Below, one piece after another: positions 3,774 through 63,108 of a stretch of 64,000 nucleotides of DNA. Where the stretch lies: positions 11,793 through 75,792 of the forward strand of contig JBATDG010000075.1 of NCBI GenBank assembly GCA_049663345.1, read 5' to 3'. The stretch is from Bacteroidota bacterium. GTDB lineage: Bacteria; Bacteroidota; Ignavibacteria; SZUA-365. Made by a program: the position numbers and the translations under genes. Each line of letters opens with the position of its first letter. Position 1 is the first letter of the stretch. A model generated the notes under the pieces. That model did no database searches. It was given only the letters and a program-made list of their open reading frames with translations, and was not told where the DNA came from.

Positions 3774-5945
3774 GTGCCGTTGGAACCCTACGATTATAGA
3801 CCAGGACGAAATGAGGATCTCCGGATTCTGCAGAGACAGCAGAGTTCGGTGCGCATGTATATGCTCATTACCATTTTTCTGACCGGATTCTTCGCCATTC
3901 TGGTCAAGCTTTTTGTTATTCAGGTCCGCGATGCGGAAAAGCTGCAGGAAATGGCGCGCATCCAGTACGAGAGCCGGGAGATCATCAGGCCCGTCCGCGG
4001 TCTGATCCTTGATCGCAATCTTTCCATTCTTGCCTCCAACGTGACCGAATACACGCTTTCTGTCGATCCCTCTGTTATTGATTGCCCCGACACCGTCGCA
4101 CGCTTCATCTCCAGGGCTCTTGGCATACCGTACCAGAGCATGTTGAAGCATTTCCGCGATACCACTGTCCAGTACGACATCATCCAAAAACACATTCCGG
4201 AAGAAATCGCCGATAAATTCGACGGTTGGTCCTGCTATGGTGTGCGTATGCGGTCTTTCCCGCGGCGGCGCTACAATTTCAACGCACTCGCGGGTCCGGT
4301 GATCGGCTACACGAACATCGACAATAGCGGACAGAGTGGAATGGAACTGGAGATGAACAGCGAGCTATCCGGCAAGGAAGGGTTCATCGTCTATCAGCGC
4401 AATGCACGCGGCACGCGCCGGCCTGAGGTAGACTATCCGAAAGTGGAACCGGTGAACGGCCGCAGCGTAGTGCTCACGATCAGTCAGGTGTATCAGTCCA
4501 TCGCTGAAGAGGAACTCGCCCGCGGCGTCACGCTGCACGAGGCGGAGTCCGGCCGCTGCATCATCCTGCAGCCGAAGACCGGGGAAATTCTCGCCATGGC
4601 AAACGTGCCAAGCATCGATCCCAACAAGCTTTCCGAATATACTCCGGAAAAAGCGCGTAACCGCGCAGTGACGGATCTCTACGAGCCGGGCTCCACGTTT
4701 AAAATCGTTGCCATGAGCGGTGCACTCAATGAAGGATTGCACAAACCGCAGGACCGCATCAACGCCGAAGGCGGCAAGTGGCTGTACAACGCAAAACTTA
4801 AACCGATCGTAGACGATCATCCCTATGCTTCGCTCACCCTGCGCGGCGCCTTCGAGCACAGCTCTAACATCGTTTCTGCGAAACTCGCCAATGAACTGGG
4901 CGACGAACGCTTCTACAAATATGCACGGAATTTCGGCTTTGGAGTGAAGACCGGTATCGAGATGCCGGGCGAGCTCAACGGAGACCTTCGCAAGCCTCTT
5001 GATTGGGACGGCACGACGCTCAACTACCTGGCATTCGGCTACGGCCTCGCCGTGACGCCGCTGCAGATCGCCTGCGCTTACGCAGCGATCGCGAACGACG
5101 GAGTGCTGATGCGGCCGTTCATTCGCAAATGGATGCTTGATGCGGACCGCAACATCGTCGACGAAACCGTGCCGCAGGTCGTCCGCCGCGTCGTCTCCTC
5201 CGAGACCTCCCGCATCATGCGCGGCTTCATGCAGGGTGTGGTCGACAGCGGTACCGCGAAACTGGCGAAGATCGAAGGAATGAATATCGGCGGAAAAACC
5301 GGTACCTCTCAGCGGCTCGTCAACGGCTCCTACTCCAATAAATCGCATGTGGCGTCGTTTGTTGGATTCTTCCCTGTTGAAGATCCGGAAGTCCTTATCC
5401 TCGTGATCCTTGATGCGCCGAAGCGCGGGTATTACGGCGGAACCACAGCCGGACCGATTTTCCGCACGATTGCGATGCGCATCATCAACTCGTCGAGCGA
5501 TTTTGCGAAAAAGCCGGAACCTCTGTATGCGTCTTTCAAAGGCTCCGACCGGGTGCGCGTACCTAATGTCCGCGGCATGCGGGCCGACATGGCCAGCCAG
5601 GTGCTCAAGGCACATGGCTTCAACATGGAAACCGTCGGCAGCGGTGAACTCGTGGCCGAGCAGCTTCCGGCCGAAAACGCATTCTCCGAACGCCGCACTC
5701 CCGTCACTGTGCGGCTCATTGGCGCGAATCGGGCAGGGAAGGACGATCTGGTGCGGGTACCCGACGTTGTGGGAATGTCGCTGCGCCAGGCAATGAATTT
5801 TATCAAAGGCATGAATCTCGAACCGAGTCCGATAGGCAGCGGTGTCGTCGGCTCCCAATATCCTGCTGCGGGAGAGCTTGTCCCCCGCGGAACGCGCTGC
5901 ACGCTCGATGGCGAGGCGCGCACGGTCACGGCAAACCTGTACTAG
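3774..5945 (+). CDS. ftsI: peptidoglycan D,D-transpeptidase FtsI (class B PBP) with two C-terminal PASTA domains
   Basis: PBP dimerisation and transpeptidase motifs (STFK, SSN, KTGT at ...GGKTGTSQ). Two PASTA-like repeats (VPNVRGMRADMASQVLKAHGF..., VPDVVGMSLRQAMNFIKGMNL...). The GTG start at 3774 is uncertain; an alternative is ATG 3855. Confidence 0.85.
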   Translation: MPLEPYDYRPGRNEDLRILQRQQSSVRMYMLITIFLTGFFAILVKLFVIQVRDAEKLQEMARIQYESREIIRPVRGLILDRNLSILASNVTEYTLSVDPSVIDCPDTVARFISRALGIPYQSMLKHFRDTTVQYDIIQKHIPEEIADKFDGWSCYGVRMRSFPRRRYNFNALAGPVIGYTNIDNSGQSGMELEMNSELSGKEGFIVYQRNARGTRRPEVDYPKVEPVNGRSVVLTISQVYQSIAEEELARGVTLHEAESGRCIILQPKTGEILAMANVPSIDPNKLSEYTPEKARNRAVTDLYEPGSTFKIVAMSGALNEGLHKPQDRINAEGGKWLYNAKLKPIVDDHPYASLTLRGAFEHSSNIVSAKLANELGDERFYKYARNFGFGVKTGIEMPGELNGDLRKPLDWDGTTLNYLAFGYGLAVTPLQIACAYAAIANDGVLMRPFIRKWMLDADRNIVDETVPQVVRRVVSSETSRIMRGFMQGVVDSGTAKLAKIEGMNIGGKTGTSQRLVNGSYSNKSHVASFVGFFPVEDPEVLILVILDAPKRGYYGGTTAGPIFRTIAMRIINSSSDFAKKPEPLYASFKGSDRVRVPNVRGMRADMASQVLKAHGFNMETVGSGELVAEQLPAENAFSERRTPVTVRLIGANRAGKDDLVRVPDVVGMSLRQAMNFIKGMNLEPSPIGSGVVGSQYPAAGELVPRGTRCTLDGEARTVTANLY

Positions 5946-11436: not shown

Positions 11437-12599
11437 AGCAGCGCACCGGACATATCGACCTGTATGTGTTCCTGAGCGTGCTCGCGCTGATGCTGTTCAG
11501 CGTGGGCGTCGTGTACAGTGCCTCAGTGTCCATTTCCGGTATGCGCCATGATGGCGACATCAACTTCCTGTTCCGCAATCATTCGATCCGCGTCGTCCTC
11601 GGCGTTGGCGCTCTCTTTGTCGGCATGTTCGTCGATTATCACATCTACCGGCACTTCAGCAAATATCTTCTGATCATCGGCCTGCTCCTGCTTGCATACA
11701 CCCTCGTCGGCGGTACGGTAGTAAAGGGTGCGCAGCGCTGGGTGAGCTTCGGCCCCATCAGCTTCCAACCGTCTGAATTTGCGAAGTTCGCGCTCGTGAT
11801 GCATCTCGCAGTGCTGCTGGCGGCGAAACAGAAATATATAACGGATTTCAAGGACGGGTTCCTTCCGCTCCTGGTATGGATTATCGCAGTAGTCGGACTG
11901 GTATTCCTTCAGCCGAATTTCAGCACAGGCAGCATCATTCTGGCTATCAGCTTCATGGTGCTGTTCGTCGGAAGGATCAGCATCAAGCACCTGGTCGGCG
12001 TCGCACTGGCTGGTCTTCCCATCATCATGGTGTATGCCGTCTCCGCAACCTATCGGTGGAACCGCATCATGGCGCATTTCACTGATGCAGGAGCCGCCAA
12101 CGCCGGCAACTATCAGGTCGAACAGGCCGTCATCGGACTTGGTAATGGGGGTTTGTTCGGTGTCGGAATGGGAATGAGCAAGCAGCGAGAACTCTTCCTC
12201 CCGGAATCATACACCGATTTCATTTTCGCCATCGTTGGCGAAGAATACGGATTCATCGGCGGCGCGATCATTATCGCACTGTTCGCCGTCATCATGGTGC
12301 GTGGAATGAAAATCGCGAAGCGTGCGACCGACGATCTCGGCCGCTACCTCGCTGTCGGAATCACCTGTACTATTTCTGTGTACGCGATCATCAACGCCAT
12401 GGTCACCACCGGCCTGCTGCCCACGACGGGTTTGCCTATGCCGCTGCTCAGCTATGGCGGCACTACGATTATTTTCACGGCCTATGCCCTCGGGATCCTG
12501 ATCAACATTTCGATGTACACGCGCATTCGTCCGCGAGAAATCAACCATCAGCACCAGGAAGAACCTGCCGGTATGCGGGTTGGAGAAATGTACGAGTGA
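11433..12599 (+). CDS. ftsW: peptidoglycan glycosyltransferase FtsW (SEDS family)
   Basis: ATGA overlap with the murD stop. Ten-TM SEDS-type protein (FQPSEFAKFALV, TDFIFAIVGEE). The ORF-track start 11397 was moved to ATG 11433. Confidence 0.85.
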   Translation: MKQRTGHIDLYVFLSVLALMLFSVGVVYSASVSISGMRHDGDINFLFRNHSIRVVLGVGALFVGMFVDYHIYRHFSKYLLIIGLLLLAYTLVGGTVVKGAQRWVSFGPISFQPSEFAKFALVMHLAVLLAAKQKYITDFKDGFLPLLVWIIAVVGLVFLQPNFSTGSIILAISFMVLFVGRISIKHLVGVALAGLPIIMVYAVSATYRWNRIMAHFTDAGAANAGNYQVEQAVIGLGNGGLFGVGMGMSKQRELFLPESYTDFIFAIVGEEYGFIGGAIIIALFAVIMVRGMKIAKRATDDLGRYLAVGITCTISVYAIINAMVTTGLLPTTGLPMPLLSYGGTTIIFTAYALGILINISMYTRIRPREINHQHQEEPAGMRVGEMYE

Positions 12600-13705
12600 G
12601 CGAAGCACTGCGCGTCATATTCGCCGGAGGCGGCACCGGGGGACATCTCTTCCCGGGCATCGCCATTGCGGAAGCTCTTCGCGAGCTGCGGCCGGATTGC
12701 AGCGTCAGCTTCGTGGGTTCGCGCAATCGCATCGAGGCGCGCATCGTGCCGAAGTACGGCTATCCTTTCGACTCAGTGTGGATCGCCGGACTGCAGCGCA
12801 GATTCTCGCTGCGCACCGCGCTGCTGCCGCTCAAGCTCGTGGTTTCGCTGTTCCAGTCATGGAATATCCTCCGTCGGCGGCGGCCGCATGTCGTGATCGG
12901 AACAGGCGGATACGTGTCAGGACCGCTTCTGTACGTGGCAGCGCGTACCGGTCGGCGCACACTCATTCACGAGCAGAATGAATATCCCGGCATCACCACG
13001 CGTAAGCTCGCGCCGTTGGTCGACGAAGTGCATGTGACCTTCGAATCGAGCGAAAGAATGCTCGGCGATACAAAAAAGCTTGTGTTGAGCGGTAATCCGG
13101 TTCGGCTGAGTCTTTCGCGCAGCGATGCCGGCGACGCCCGCATGCATTTCGGACTGCATCCTTCCCGTCCCACGCTGTTCATTTTCGGCGGAAGTCTCGG
13201 AGCGCGCTCCATCAATCGTGCTGTGCGTCCCCTCGTGCCGCGGCTCGTGCGGGAAGATTATCAGCTGATCTGGCAGACAGGCACTGCGGACTATGAAGAA
13301 CTGAAATCCCTCGGCGCGCTGTACCGCGAGCACGTGATCGTTCGGCCGTTCATTGACGAAATGGACCACGCATACTCAGCATCGGATCTGGTGCTTTGCC
13401 GAGCAGGAGCCACATCCATCGCAGAACTTACAGCGCTTGGAATTCCCTCGCTGCTGGTGCCGTTCCCGAAAGCGGCAGCGGACCATCAGTACAAGAACGC
13501 AGTCGCATTGGCGGAACAGGGTGCCTCGCTGGTGCTGCGCGACGAAGAACTTGGACGTCTGGAGCGTGAATTGTTCGCGCTTCTCGAAGACGGAGCCGCA
13601 TTGGCGCGCATGTCTGCCGCCGCGAAGAGTGCCGGTCATCCGCGTGCCGCATTCGATATCGCCGAAGCGGTTATACGGCTAGCAGAAAAAGGAGCAGGAG
13701 GCTGA
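12596..13705 (+). CDS. murG: UDP-N-acetylglucosamine--N-acetylmuramyl-(pentapeptide) pyrophosphoryl-undecaprenol GlcNAc transferase
   Basis: GTG start overlaps the ftsW stop. GGTGGHLFPGIAIAEAL glycine-rich loop of MurG. Confidence 0.9.
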   Translation: MSEALRVIFAGGGTGGHLFPGIAIAEALRELRPDCSVSFVGSRNRIEARIVPKYGYPFDSVWIAGLQRRFSLRTALLPLKLVVSLFQSWNILRRRRPHVVIGTGGYVSGPLLYVAARTGRRTLIHEQNEYPGITTRKLAPLVDEVHVTFESSERMLGDTKKLVLSGNPVRLSLSRSDAGDARMHFGLHPSRPTLFIFGGSLGARSINRAVRPLVPRLVREDYQLIWQTGTADYEELKSLGALYREHVIVRPFIDEMDHAYSASDLVLCRAGATSIAELTALGIPSLLVPFPKAAADHQYKNAVALAEQGASLVLRDEELGRLERELFALLEDGAALARMSAAAKSAGHPRAAFDIAEAVIRLAEKGAGG

Positions 13706-13706
13706 A

Positions 13707-14186
13707 ATGATCAAGCAGGAATACAGTTTCAAGCATCGCAACGATCTCTACTATGTCACGCTGCTCGTATACGTGGCGTTTGCGGTGCTCTACATCGTCG
13801 TCACCGGAACGATCACCGACGACAGCGTGGAATTCGGATTGAAGGACCCGGTAGTCTACATCATCGCTGCATTCATCTTGCATGCGCTGATCATGCTGCT
13901 GACGAGCGTTGTCCGCAACCGGCGGCTGGTCATCACCGAGGATTCGCTGGTGTTCGCTTCACGCTTCCGCGAGCGCTTCGTTCCCTTCAGCAGCATCGAA
14001 CGCATCACGCTGAAGCACGAACGCCGCCGGCTGAGCAACAGCAAGCTGAGCGATCGAAAATTCGCAGTGATCAAACTGCATGTCGCAGGCCGGCGCCGCG
14101 TCGTTCGCCTTCGCGTCGCCGCCTATGAGCGCGAGAAAGAACTCTATCAGATTCTCAAGAAGCTGAAGCATGATTTGAAGCTGTGA
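13707..14186 (+). CDS. small membrane protein with bacterial PH domain (YdbS/bPH_2-like), embedded in the dcw operon
   Basis: Two predicted TM helices (LYYVTLLVYVAFAVLYIVV, VVYIIAAFILHALIMLLTSVV) followed by an ~80-aa basic domain resembling the bPH_2 fold. ATG lies 1 nt after the murG stop. Confidence 0.5.
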   Translation: MIKQEYSFKHRNDLYYVTLLVYVAFAVLYIVVTGTITDDSVEFGLKDPVVYIIAAFILHALIMLLTSVVRNRRLVITEDSLVFASRFRERFVPFSSIERITLKHERRRLSNSKLSDRKFAVIKLHVAGRRRVVRLRVAAYEREKELYQILKKLKHDLKL

Positions 14187-14264
14187 AGACGTGAGGACGT
14201 GAGGACGTGAAGACGTGAGGACGTGAGTACGTGAGTACGATAGGACGTGAGTACGATAGGACGG
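14183..14264. repeat. 9-bp-unit tandem repeat array (GACGTGAGG / TACGATAGG units) ending ...TAGGACGG
   Basis: gtgaagacgtgaggacgtgaggacgtgaagacgtgaggacgtgagtacgtgagtacgataggacgtgagtacgataggacgg starts at the stop codon of the preceding gene. The same family recurs at 38061-38204. Confidence 0.85.
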
Positions 14265-14287: not shown

Positions 14288-15670
14288 ATGAAATTCGCGA
14301 ACATCAATCACCTTTTCTTCGTCGGTATCGGCGGCATCGGAATGAGCGGCATTGCTGAAATCCTGCTCAATCAGGGCTTCCGTGTTTCGGGTTCCGATCT
14401 GACGATGACGGAAGTGACGCGGCATCTTGTGGACATGGGCGCCACGGTCTACGAGGGACATGACCCGAGTAATCTGCGTGATGTGGATGTACTGGTGTAT
14501 TCCTCGGCGGTCGCGCTGGAAAACCCGGAAGTGATTGCGGCGATCGAGCGAAAAATTCCCGTGATCCGCCGTGCCGAAATGCTCGCGGAAGTAATGCGTC
14601 TGCATCACGGCATCGCAGTCGCAGGCACACACGGAAAGACTACGACCACGTCGATGCTCGGCATGGTCCTGATCGAGGGCGGCAAGGATCCTACAGTAAT
14701 CGTGGGAGGCAAGCTTCACGCTTTCGGAGGAACAAACGCGCGCCTCGGCGGCGGCGAATTCATGGTCGTCGAAGCGGATGAATTCGACCGTTCCTTTCTC
14801 AAGCTCAATCCTTCCATTGCCATTCTCACAACGCTTGAGGAAGAACACCTCGACATCTACAGCAGTCTCGACGATCTGAAAAATGCTTTCGTCGAATTTG
14901 CGAACAAGGTGCCGTTTTATGGATTCGTGACGCTGTGTCTCGACGAGCCCGCGCTGCAGGAAATTCTTCCGTTGATCATGCGCAAGGTCGTGACCTACGG
15001 CTTCAGTTCCCAGGCCGATATTCAGGCAGTGGATCTGGTGCAGAAGGAGAATCGCGCAAGCTTCACCGTGCTGCGGCAGGGTGTGGAAGTCGGCGTGATC
15101 CATCTGGGCGTGCCCGGTGAGCACAACGTGCAGAATGCCCTGGCAGCCATCGCAGTCAGTCTCGAACTCAACATTCCGTTCGAACACATCAAGACCGCAC
15201 TCGATTCCTTCGCAGGTGCGTTCCGCCGCTTCGAAGTCAAGGCGGAAGTCGGCGATATCATGGTGGTCGATGATTACGCACATCACCCGACGGAAGTCAA
15301 AGTCACGCTTCGCGGAATCAAGTCCGGCTGGCGCCGCCGCGTGGTCTGCGTCTTTCAGCCGCATACCTACACGCGCACGCGTGATTTCTACAAGGATTTC
15401 GGTCGGTCGTTCATGAACGCCGATCTCCTGATCGTCACCGACATTTATCCTGCGCGCGAGCGTCCGATACAGGGCGTTACCGGTGAACTCATCGCCGACG
15501 CCGCGCGGAGTTTCGGACACAAAAATGTGATGTATGTCCCTGATAAAAAAGACGTGCCCGCACTGCTGAGCGACGTCGTGCTTCCGGGAGATCTCGTGAT
15601 CACCATGGGCGCCGGCGACATCTACACCTACGGCGCACAATTCATTGCTCAGCTGGAGGCCGCTTCCTGA
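14288..15670 (+). CDS. murC: UDP-N-acetylmuramate--L-alanine ligase
   Basis: HLFFVGIGGIGMSGIAEIL and AGTHGKTTTTSM motifs. The ORF-track start 14231 translates the upstream repeat array, so the start was moved to ATG 14288 (ggaa...ATG). Confidence 0.88.
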   Translation: MKFANINHLFFVGIGGIGMSGIAEILLNQGFRVSGSDLTMTEVTRHLVDMGATVYEGHDPSNLRDVDVLVYSSAVALENPEVIAAIERKIPVIRRAEMLAEVMRLHHGIAVAGTHGKTTTTSMLGMVLIEGGKDPTVIVGGKLHAFGGTNARLGGGEFMVVEADEFDRSFLKLNPSIAILTTLEEEHLDIYSSLDDLKNAFVEFANKVPFYGFVTLCLDEPALQEILPLIMRKVVTYGFSSQADIQAVDLVQKENRASFTVLRQGVEVGVIHLGVPGEHNVQNALAAIAVSLELNIPFEHIKTALDSFAGAFRRFEVKAEVGDIMVVDDYAHHPTEVKVTLRGIKSGWRRRVVCVFQPHTYTRTRDFYKDFGRSFMNADLLIVTDIYPARERPIQGVTGELIADAARSFGHKNVMYVPDKKDVPALLSDVVLPGDLVITMGAGDIYTYGAQFIAQLEAAS

Positions 15671-18764: not shown

Positions 18765-18810
18765 GAATTAGGAATTACGAATTACGAATTAGGAATTACG
18801 AATTACGACG
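18765..18810. repeat. 9-bp-unit tandem repeat (GAATTAGGA / GAATTACGA)
   Basis: gaattaggaattacgaattacgaattaggaattacgaattacgacg lies 6 nt after the ftsA stop. A second copy sits at 58045-58079. Confidence 0.85.
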
Positions 18811-20200: not shown

Positions 20201-20383
20201 GTAAGCCTTCGCCCTGAAAGGGCGGACCATTGCAGCCCAGGGCGTTAGCCCTGGGTTAGCGGTGCGGCCTTAATAAATCCCCTTCGCCCTGAAAGTCGGA
20301 GGTCCAAAGGACCGAAGACTCGCCCGAGGCGAGGGCGAAACACGATTCTCTCCTCCCAATCTCTCCCTTACTCAGCCAACGCA

Positions 20384-38056: not shown

Positions 38057-38060
38057 AAAC

Positions 38061-38204
38061 GTTAGGACGTGAGGACGTGAGGACGTGAGGATCGTTAGGA
38101 CGTGAGGATCGTTAGGACGTGAGGACGTGAGGATCGTGAGGACGTGAGGATCGTGAGGACGTGAGGATCGTTAGGATCGTTAGGATGTGAGGATCGTTAG
38201 GACG
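38061..38204. repeat. 9-bp-unit tandem repeat array (GACGTGAGG / ATCGTTAGG units) ending ...TTAGGACGG
   Basis: gttaggacgtgaggacgtgaggacgtgaggatcgttaggacgtgaggatcgttagg... starts 5 nt after the S9 peptidase stop. Same family as 14183-14264. Confidence 0.85.
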
Positions 38205-58044: not shown

Positions 58045-58079
58045 ATAATTAGGAATTACGAATTACGAATTAGGAATTG
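58045..58079. repeat. 9-bp-unit tandem repeat (GAATTAGGA / GAATTACGA), second locus
   Basis: aattaggaattacgaattacgaattaggaattgcg lies 8 nt after the GIY-YIG stop. Same family as 18765-18810. Confidence 0.8.
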
Positions 58080-63028: not shown

Positions 63029-63108
63029 TTAGGGCGTAAAGAGGTAATGAGGTAAAGAGGTGAAGGGGTAAAGAGGTAAAGAGGTAAAGACGTAAAGGCG
63101 TTAGGGCG
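63029..63108. repeat. 9-bp-unit tandem repeat (GGTAAAGAG) bounded by TTAGGGCG on both sides, in the 5' leader of the T9SS beta-helix gene
   Basis: ttagggcgtaaagaggtaatgaggtaaagaggtgaaggggtaaagaggtaaagaggtaaagacgtaaaggcgttagggcg. Confidence 0.8.

Follow-up and report, generated by a model that had tools for sequence, protein, structure and literature searches.

A PH-like membrane protein encoded directly behind murG in Ignavibacteria and related bacteria, a candidate helper of cell-wall precursor synthesis

Membrane-anchored bacterial proteins with a PH-like domain are numerous, and we know of almost none for which a function has been defined. Among those described, the bPH_2 (DUF304) proteins, represented by YdbS and YdbT of B. 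subtilis and by DdE and DdF of enterocin DD14, are small and combine an N-terminal transmembrane (TM) hairpin with an intracellular PH-like domain. Intracellular PH domains, possibly assembling into rings, were predicted for the TM-anchored bPH families (Xu et al., PMC2817789), and the roles known for the YdbS/YdbT-like membrane proteins lie in bacteriocin transport and in the sigma-W envelope-stress regulon, not in peptidoglycan synthesis (PMC8657885, PMC3498285). The bPH_1 (DUF1696, PF08000) proteins lack TM segments; they are soluble and form oligomeric rings (PMC2817789).

The protein analysed here, ORF-X, is encoded between murG and murC inside a dcw cluster. It shares with the bPH_2/DUF304 proteins its small size, the N-terminal hairpin and the intracellular PH-like domain, and its biochemistry is, like theirs, largely uncharacterised. 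It differs from them in a conserved β-strand that precedes the hairpin and in its genomic context, which is murG and the dcw cluster, whereas the YdbS/YdbT-like genes belong to bacteriocin or sigma-W loci (PMC8657885, PMC3498285). The best structural match to its domain is found among the bPH_1 proteins (3dcx, 3hsa); these, however, are soluble and only 13-14% identical to ORF-X, which carries a TM hairpin. The dcw products FtsL/DivIC and FtsQ are also small membrane proteins encoded in tight packing with their neighbours, but they are single-pass proteins with periplasmic functional domains, whereas ORF-X is a two-pass hairpin protein with a predicted cytoplasmic PH-like domain; unlike them, moreover, it keeps to murG even outside the dcw cluster. 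Lineage-specific insertions in dcw clusters are not rare.

The gene and its product

The stretch of DNA that was analysed, referred to here as the window, comprises 64,000 nt of the forward strand (positions 11,793 to 75,792 of contig JBATDG010000075.1, assembly GCA_049663345.1). ORF-X occupies positions 13707-14186 of the window on the + strand, stop codon included, and its 159 codons, which start with ATG, specify an inner-membrane protein; the assignment draws on the ORF list, the translation, homologues, dN/dS values and an AlphaFold2 model. The upstream neighbour, murG (12596-13705, +), was identified by the Pfam domains Glyco_transf_28 and Glyco_tran_28_C. Its TGA stop codon (13703-13705) is separated by a single base from the ATG of ORF-X at 13707, so that the ORF list and the sequence both bear out the first-pass annotation, which had placed an extra 159-aa gene 1 nt past the murG stop. 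A Shine-Dalgarno-like GGAGG, read from the sequence at 13697-13701 (+), still belongs to the 3' end of murG and precedes the start codon by 5 nt, a context consistent with translational coupling of ORF-X to murG. The downstream gene, where the dcw cluster is intact, is murC (14288-15670, +), which has three Pfam Mur_ligase domains and at whose ATG the tblastn alignments begin.

According to the ORF list, the gene order in the window is mraZ, rsmH, ftsL/DivIC-like, ftsI, murE, murF, mraY, murD, ftsW, murG, X, murC, murB, ftsQ, ftsA and ftsZ, and Pfam confirmed nine of the flanking genes (those for MraZ, RsmH, the DivIC/FtsL-like protein, FtsI, FtsW, MurG, MurC, MurB and FtsQ). The mraZ/rsmH, murE/murF and ftsW/murG pairs overlap by 4 nt, and gaps of 2-3 nt separate murF from mraY, mraY from murD and murC from murB. 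The canonical order claimed for this cluster thus holds, but the claim that it is tightly coupled throughout does not, since a spacer of 101 nt, consisting mostly of an 8-bp tandem repeat, separates X from the murC ATG at 14288; this is the sole loose junction. A scan restricted to sigma-70-type promoters found none in the murG-murC interval, nor was any terminator-like site present there on the + strand; together with the 1-nt gap to murG, this gives indirect support to co-transcription of ORF-X with its dcw neighbours. No second copy of ORF-X was found within the window.

The AlphaFold2 model of ORF-X, built from a 128-sequence alignment, has a pLDDT of 88.7 and a pTM of 0.76. It superseded a first model built from 33 close sequences (pLDDT 64), and the PH-like picture obtained with Foldseek was the same for both. 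In the model, β-strands cover residues 6-10, 73-76, 80-84, 89-93, 97-104, 120-126 and 133-136, and helices cover residues 13-36, 48-70 and 143-157. The first strand (13722-13736, +), assigned by DSSP on the model, is conserved, falls within an F8..D13.Y15 motif and precedes the TM hairpin. TM helix 1 (residues 13-36; 13743-13814, +) contains the conserved residues Y22, Y29 and G34, and a short acidic periplasmic loop (residues 37-47; 13815-13847, +), recognized by its charge and conservation, runs into a near-invariant D47-P48 at the start of TM helix 2 (residues 48-70; 13848-13916, +). The remainder of the protein is a basic PH-like domain (residues 71-159; 13917-14183, +) with six β-strands followed by the C-terminal helix, as judged from the modelled secondary structure, Foldseek and charge; the strand at residues 6-10 is probably the seventh strand of this cytoplasmic domain. 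Kyte-Doolittle hydropathy peaks at about residues 22-29 and 53-62 agree with the two modelled membrane helices, as the first-pass annotation had proposed, and its description of the C-terminal domain as basic is equally well founded: the last 91 residues contain 26 K+R against 10 D+E, which gives a net charge of +16 and a pI of 11.5.

The charge distribution is a property of the family. Across the 128 sequences the charge of the C-terminal domain averages +13 and is +5 or more in 98% of members, and that of the inter-helix loop, which is only about 11-14 residues long, averages -1.2 (-3 in ORF-X). A basic C-terminal domain and an acidic loop indicate, by the positive-inside rule, an N-in/C-in orientation, and the PH-like domain of ORF-X is therefore predicted to be cytoplasmic. 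Residues conserved in the 128 sequences include F8 (0.76), D13 (0.85), Y15 (0.86), Y22 (0.96), Y29 (0.83), D47 (0.84) and P48 (0.94), and other positions conserved family-wide are G34, R86, I97, I100, an arginine cluster (R129/R131/R134/R136) and L146. Given that Y22, Y29, D47 and P48 are kept at an overall identity of only 20-30%, the hairpin seems to make specific intramembrane contacts, rather than to serve as a passive anchor.

The structure prediction suggested in the first-pass annotation yielded a PH-like fold. The top-listed Foldseek matches in the PDB are PH-like, the best being the bacterial PH structures 3dcx and 3hsa (E 2.9e-3 to 8.5e-3, with no match at E<=1e-3; probability 1.00; target-normalised TM about 0.5 over ~92 aligned columns), and these are followed by Pob3, Rtt106, Spt16 and SSRP1 and then by FERM and PTB domains and the GRK2 PH domain. 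From these matches and from the secondary structure of the model, ORF-X is assigned to the PH-like superfold, which is defined by a seven-stranded β-sandwich or barrel with a C-terminal α-helix. When PDB sequences were searched with a profile of the family alignment, only noise came back (ribosomal eL38 and zinc fingers, E>0.4).

Of the earlier proposal that this is a bPH_2 (YdbS/YdbT-like) domain, the PH-like fold stands, but the assignment to bPH_2 does not: PF03703 was never among the matches listed, and the nearest structures are of the bPH_1/DUF1696 type. The bPH_2 model is absent at E<=10 from the matches of the window protein, of the family consensus and of the isolated C-terminal domain. 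Nor does it figure among the 25 families listed as most frequent in the sets of 33 and 63 members, and its gathering score is not reached. ORF-X does have the bPH_2-type layout, with TM segments N-terminal to an intracellular PH-like domain, and this is an architectural resemblance only. Likewise, no Pfam or NCBIfam model reaches its curated cut-off for ORF-X. The nearest sequence models, all below threshold, are EbsA (PF17255), bPH_6 (PF10756), bPH_4 (PF06713), DUF6585 (PF20226) and STM3941_fam (NF041635), and we know of no link between any of these and murG. The window protein scores 17.8 bits against a cut-off of 25.9 for EbsA, 14.9 against 22 for bPH_6 and 19.1 against 40 for STM3941_fam; the last match (E 9.6e-4) runs over residues 14-103 and takes in the two TM helices together with the first strands of the domain. 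For the family consensus, DUF6585 reaches 20.2 of the required 27.7 bits (E 4e-4) and bPH_4 19.0 of 22.9 (E 1.5e-3). Sub-threshold matches in the close clade of 33 members are to EbsA (27/33), bPH_6 (26/33), DUF6585 (13/33, best E 1.8e-5) and bPH_3 (12/33), with bPH_4, GRAM, bPH_1 (2/33), bPH_10 and bPH_5 as further weak families, and in the wider set of 63 members they are to EbsA (12), bPH_6 (9) and bPH_4 (8). Many of these weak matches thus fall in families that bear the name of bacterial PH or GRAM domains. Two family members carry a precomputed PF20226 tag.

ORF-X is thus best described as the representative of a new family with a PH-like fold. Literature searches on a gene between murG and murC, on a link of MurG to a PH domain and on a link of bPH proteins to cell division gave no description of ORF-X; this, together with the lack of a Pfam or NCBIfam model that claims it, agrees with the earlier view that the gene is undescribed as a dcw member. 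The TM hairpin (13743-13922, residues 13-72) also gave weak matches to the undecaprenyl-diphosphatase models BacA/UppP (Pfam E 0.016; TIGR00753 E 0.02), as did 10 of the 33 close-clade members; these matches lie far below threshold and are probably compositional, although they are curious in view of the lipid-carrier context.

Spread of the family and its linkage to murG

A search of 5.8 billion proteins recovered ORF-X homologues in 46 clusters at 51-100% identity, all from Bacteroidota or Ignavibacteria MAGs and none with a functional name; they are 152-180 aa long, except for a 104-aa fragment (P0046), and the alignment has 28 invariant columns. A profile search of 1.84 billion representatives extended the family to 164 clusters at 50% identity (E<=1e-3), 120 of them with E<=1e-10, of which most are full-length (150-180 aa) and the remainder mainly shorter fragments. 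The profile of an Ignavibacteria-like subgroup found 701 clusters at 90% identity, and a word-indexed homologue search with the 63-sequence alignment mainly recovered the close clade again. A 4223-aa repeat protein (P0190) and a 304-aa protein (P0189), the latter possibly a tandem duplication of the TM and PH parts, were left out of the family evidence. The source names are Ignavibacteria, Ignavibacteriales, Ignavibacteriae, Candidatus Kapabacteria/Kapaibacterium, Chloroherpetonaceae and Bacteroidota, all of them MAGs, and no cultured species is named among the ~35 organism-naming records for the family. The title 'uncultured Chromatiales' on a few of the GTDB-representative records is likely a labelling error, and the public records of three members (P0032, P0210 and P0252) are evidently misannotated as 'DUF4383 domain-containing protein', 'ribosomal protein L39E' and 'cytochrome c biogenesis protein CcdA'.

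ORF-X is a real gene under purifying selection. Its dN/dS values against eight relatives (pairwise Nei-Gojobori) are 0.11-0.24, which are approximate because dS is ~1 and thus near saturation; in the same clusters, comparable values (0.11-0.25) were obtained for murB and ftsQ, and values of 0.04-0.10 for murC and ftsW. In one relative (L022, 5725-6448, corresponding to the fragment P0046) the homologue is split over two reading frames, which match profile positions 3-63 and 74-154. This frameshifted copy is an assembly error or a pseudogene, and in the latter case it may indicate that the gene is dispensable.

The gene directly upstream of X was murG in all 34 contexts examined, which span the branch of the Bacteroidota/FCB group that includes the Ignavibacteria, the Kapabacteria and their relatives; the stop codon of murG and the start codon of X often overlap. 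In the close clade, murG-X-murC lies within a full dcw cluster at 23 of 23 loci, and the same arrangement was found in six loci of the wider family (L024, L027, L029, L030, L031 and L033), whose members are 20-34% identical to the window protein. The distance from murG to X lies between -14 and +85 nt; in four loci the two genes overlap, by 4, 8, 8 and 14 nt. Every locus examined has a single X, that of L022 being the frameshifted copy. The survey of related dcw clusters proposed in the first-pass annotation therefore turned out in its favour: the extra gene occupies the same place in every relative examined, it qualifies as a dcw gene by its conserved position within the cluster, and a general absence from related clusters was not seen.

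The linkage is nevertheless not to the dcw cluster as such. In three Kapabacteria-type loci (L026, L028 and L032, the last from a Kapabacteria MAG), murG-X is kept although the ~5-kb flanks contain no murC, ftsQ, ftsA or ftsZ, which indicates that X is linked to murG itself. The idea of dcw membership is thus upheld as regards position in the murG-X-murC loci, but a tie to the cluster as a whole is not borne out in these three.

As a control, metagenome contigs were scanned with a MurG alignment, which gave 80 loci whose MurG is ~31-47% identical to that of the window. Only one of the 80 (L033) contains a match to X, and there it lies between murG and murC. The murG-murC gap is below 150 nt in 60 of the 62 same-strand loci (median 4 nt), including eleven in which MurC is 47-60% identical to the window's, and L033 is both the only control locus with a gap of at least 400 nt and the only one with an X match. 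Given the tight murG-murC gaps in these 60 loci, we conclude that X is a lineage-specific insertion.

Possible roles of ORF-X

The PH-like membrane family and its robust linkage to murG are the new results of this analysis, and we regard them as solid. Strict adjacency to murG that survives the break-up of the dcw cluster is an unusually clean genomic clue for a protein of this kind. Given that a PH-like membrane protein is encoded directly behind murG, ORF-X is a credible candidate for a lineage-specific helper of cell-wall precursor synthesis. Judged from gene order and topology, X would be made together with MurG, and the two proteins would cooperate where lipid I becomes lipid II, on the cytoplasmic face of the membrane. 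X would most likely be a membrane-embedded adaptor, whose hairpin may sit among integral partners such as MraY and FtsW or at the undecaprenyl-linked substrate, and whose basic PH-like domain, with its R129/R131/R134/R136 patch, may bind either MurG or an anionic molecule, for example a pyrophosphate-lipid or acidic phospholipid. Candidate surfaces for such contacts are the conserved intramembrane tyrosines and the arginine patch, and X would act by positioning or regulating MurG rather than as a catalyst.

The constraint on the coding sequence, the synteny of X with murG, the single copy per locus, the cytoplasmic topology, the PH-like fold and the conserved TM residues all argue for such an adaptor. 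MurG acts on the cytoplasmic side of the membrane, and with a cytoplasmic domain and a short periplasmic loop, X therefore fits a role at that face, with MurG, better than a periplasmic role in the divisome. Against it, gene adjacency can persist without physical partnership, PH-like folds are functionally promiscuous, the roles tied to known membrane bPH proteins lie outside peptidoglycan synthesis, and the frameshifted copy in L022 may point to dispensability. Taking both sides together, we would give the MurG-adaptor explanation as a whole a probability of about one half. We also considered whether X might replace a lost membrane-binding patch of MurG. The MurG proteins of X-carrying genomes, however, retain the amphipathic stretch, basic and hydrophobic, that lines up with residues of about 64-100 of E. 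coli MurG, which we take to be its membrane-association patch; X is therefore not obviously a substitute for a lost surface, and we disfavour this possibility.

A more far-reaching version, which is tentative and which we rather doubt, would make X an unrecognised, ancestral component of the machinery for lipid II synthesis in the branch of Ignavibacteria, Kapabacteria and Chlorobi relatives, a membrane-embedded PH-like adaptor that physically couples MurG, a peripheral protein, either to MraY/FtsW or to the substrate linked to undecaprenyl. If this were true, the coupling adaptor would be the first cell-wall role assigned to a bacterial PH-domain protein, and the conversion of lipid I to lipid II would gain a new point of regulation. 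Even a functional link in general would supply a lineage-specific partner of an essential enzyme that is an antibiotic target, an additional member for one of the most conserved bacterial gene clusters and a concrete biochemical setting for the bacterial PH fold. The importance is limited by the fact that the carriers seen are uncultured MAG lineages and that such insertions in dcw clusters are not rare.

The adjacency to murG could also be no more than a by-product of the dcw cluster, with X acting as an accessory factor of the divisome or elongasome, the role proposed in the first-pass annotation, mainly through contacts of its hairpin with FtsW/FtsI or FtsQLB. In most carriers X is indeed encoded between ftsW-murG and murC...ftsQAZ, its TM residues are conserved, and two of the genomes with dispersed clusters have a divergent SPOR-domain gene on the upstream side of murG-X. 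In the dispersed clusters, however, X goes with murG and not with ftsW, ftsQ, ftsA or ftsZ, and the globular domain is on the cytoplasmic side, with merely a short loop exposed to the periplasm. We consider a divisome role unlikely.

In another reading, X does not bind the MurG protein itself; its target would be the lipid carrier (undecaprenyl phosphate) or the intermediates lipid I and lipid II, which it would bind or handle, for instance by presenting lipid I to MurG or by passing lipid II on. This would accord with the conservation of intramembrane Tyr, Thr and Gly residues, of the D-P motif beside TM helix 2 and of an arginine patch near the membrane, which would be suited to a pyrophosphate, and with the weak hairpin matches to BacA/UppP (E about 0.02, and in 10 of 33 members). 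Small membrane proteins that recognise undecaprenyl phosphate exist, ShfA being an example (PMC13598258). The BacA similarity, however, is far below threshold and probably compositional, as noted above, and a two-helix hairpin offers a small platform for specific lipid binding, which makes this reading distinctly improbable.

We find it very unlikely that X is a generic membrane bPH protein of the YdbS/YdbT-like sort, with a part in envelope stress or in peptide export or immunity, that merely rides in the operon and plays no part in peptidoglycan synthesis or division. Its overall layout, a hairpin followed by an intracellular PH-like domain, is that of the TM-anchored bPH families (PMC2817789), whose known roles include bacteriocin transport and membership in the sigma-W regulon (PMC8657885, PMC3498285); but bPH_2 was never among the matches listed, X is present in a single copy per locus and fixed to murG down to ~20% identity and across rearrangements, and bacteriocin or ABC-transporter genes adjoin it at none of the loci seen. 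Finally, the possibility that ORF-X is spurious, or a relic without function left in the spacer between two genes, for which one could cite the frameshifted copy in L022, is effectively refuted by conservation across hundreds of clusters, dN/dS values of 0.11-0.24, a confidently modelled fold (pLDDT 88.7) and the preservation of length and motifs.

Repeats and neighbouring features

Most of the spacer between X and murC is taken up by about 10 copies of the 8-bp unit GTGAGGAC (14183-14263, without strand assignment), detected by TRF, and this array is probably not part of the function of the gene. The GTGAGGAC unit recurs elsewhere in the window, at 38059-38204, as about 17 copies of ACGTGAGG. 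Other intergenic arrays of 7-8-bp units are located at 18765-18808, 58047-58078 and 63036-63097; between ftsA and ftsZ the unit is GAATTAC (about 6 copies). The X-murC spacers of several relatives contain repeats with different units, namely a GGACATA-like unit in L005, GGAAGCAG in L006 (about 25 copies), AGGATGA in L009, CGTAAAT in L015 (about 11 copies) and GGCTGTA in L022 (about 7 copies), and other relatives have spacers that measure 0-30 nt. The short tandem arrays look like a hypervariable, genome-wide repeat habit of the clade.

In the three dispersed loci, X is followed immediately, at overlapping or nearly overlapping junctions, by a gene for a protein of ~200 aa (L026, 5480-6118; L028, 5502-6140; L032, 4377-4967). 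This protein has no Pfam match and no homologue in the window; those of L026 and L028 are 24% identical (E 2e-13). It begins with a signal-like segment and ends in a conserved tail, 'EP(L/V)..V..A..T..L.(F/Y)TVR(S/T)(Q/K)', that calls to mind a C-terminal signal for sorting or anchoring. The divergent SPOR-domain gene mentioned above lies just upstream of murG-X in two of these three genomes (L026, 2742-3767, -; L032, 1957-2856, -); according to Pfam, SPOR is named for sporulation and cell-division proteins such as FtsN and is said to bind peptidoglycan.

Two further features of the window lie in or near the dcw cluster. A match to the Rfam Acido-Lenti-1 sRNA (20210-20255, -; 48.1 bits against a gathering score of 37) is located ~110 nt downstream of the ftsZ stop codon on the opposite strand. 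PASTA domains are typical of Gram-positive PBP2x-type enzymes and of PASTA kinases, and the FtsI/PBP3 homologue of the window (3774-5945, +) has two C-terminal PASTA matches at residues of about 600-708 (Pfam E 1.2e-18).
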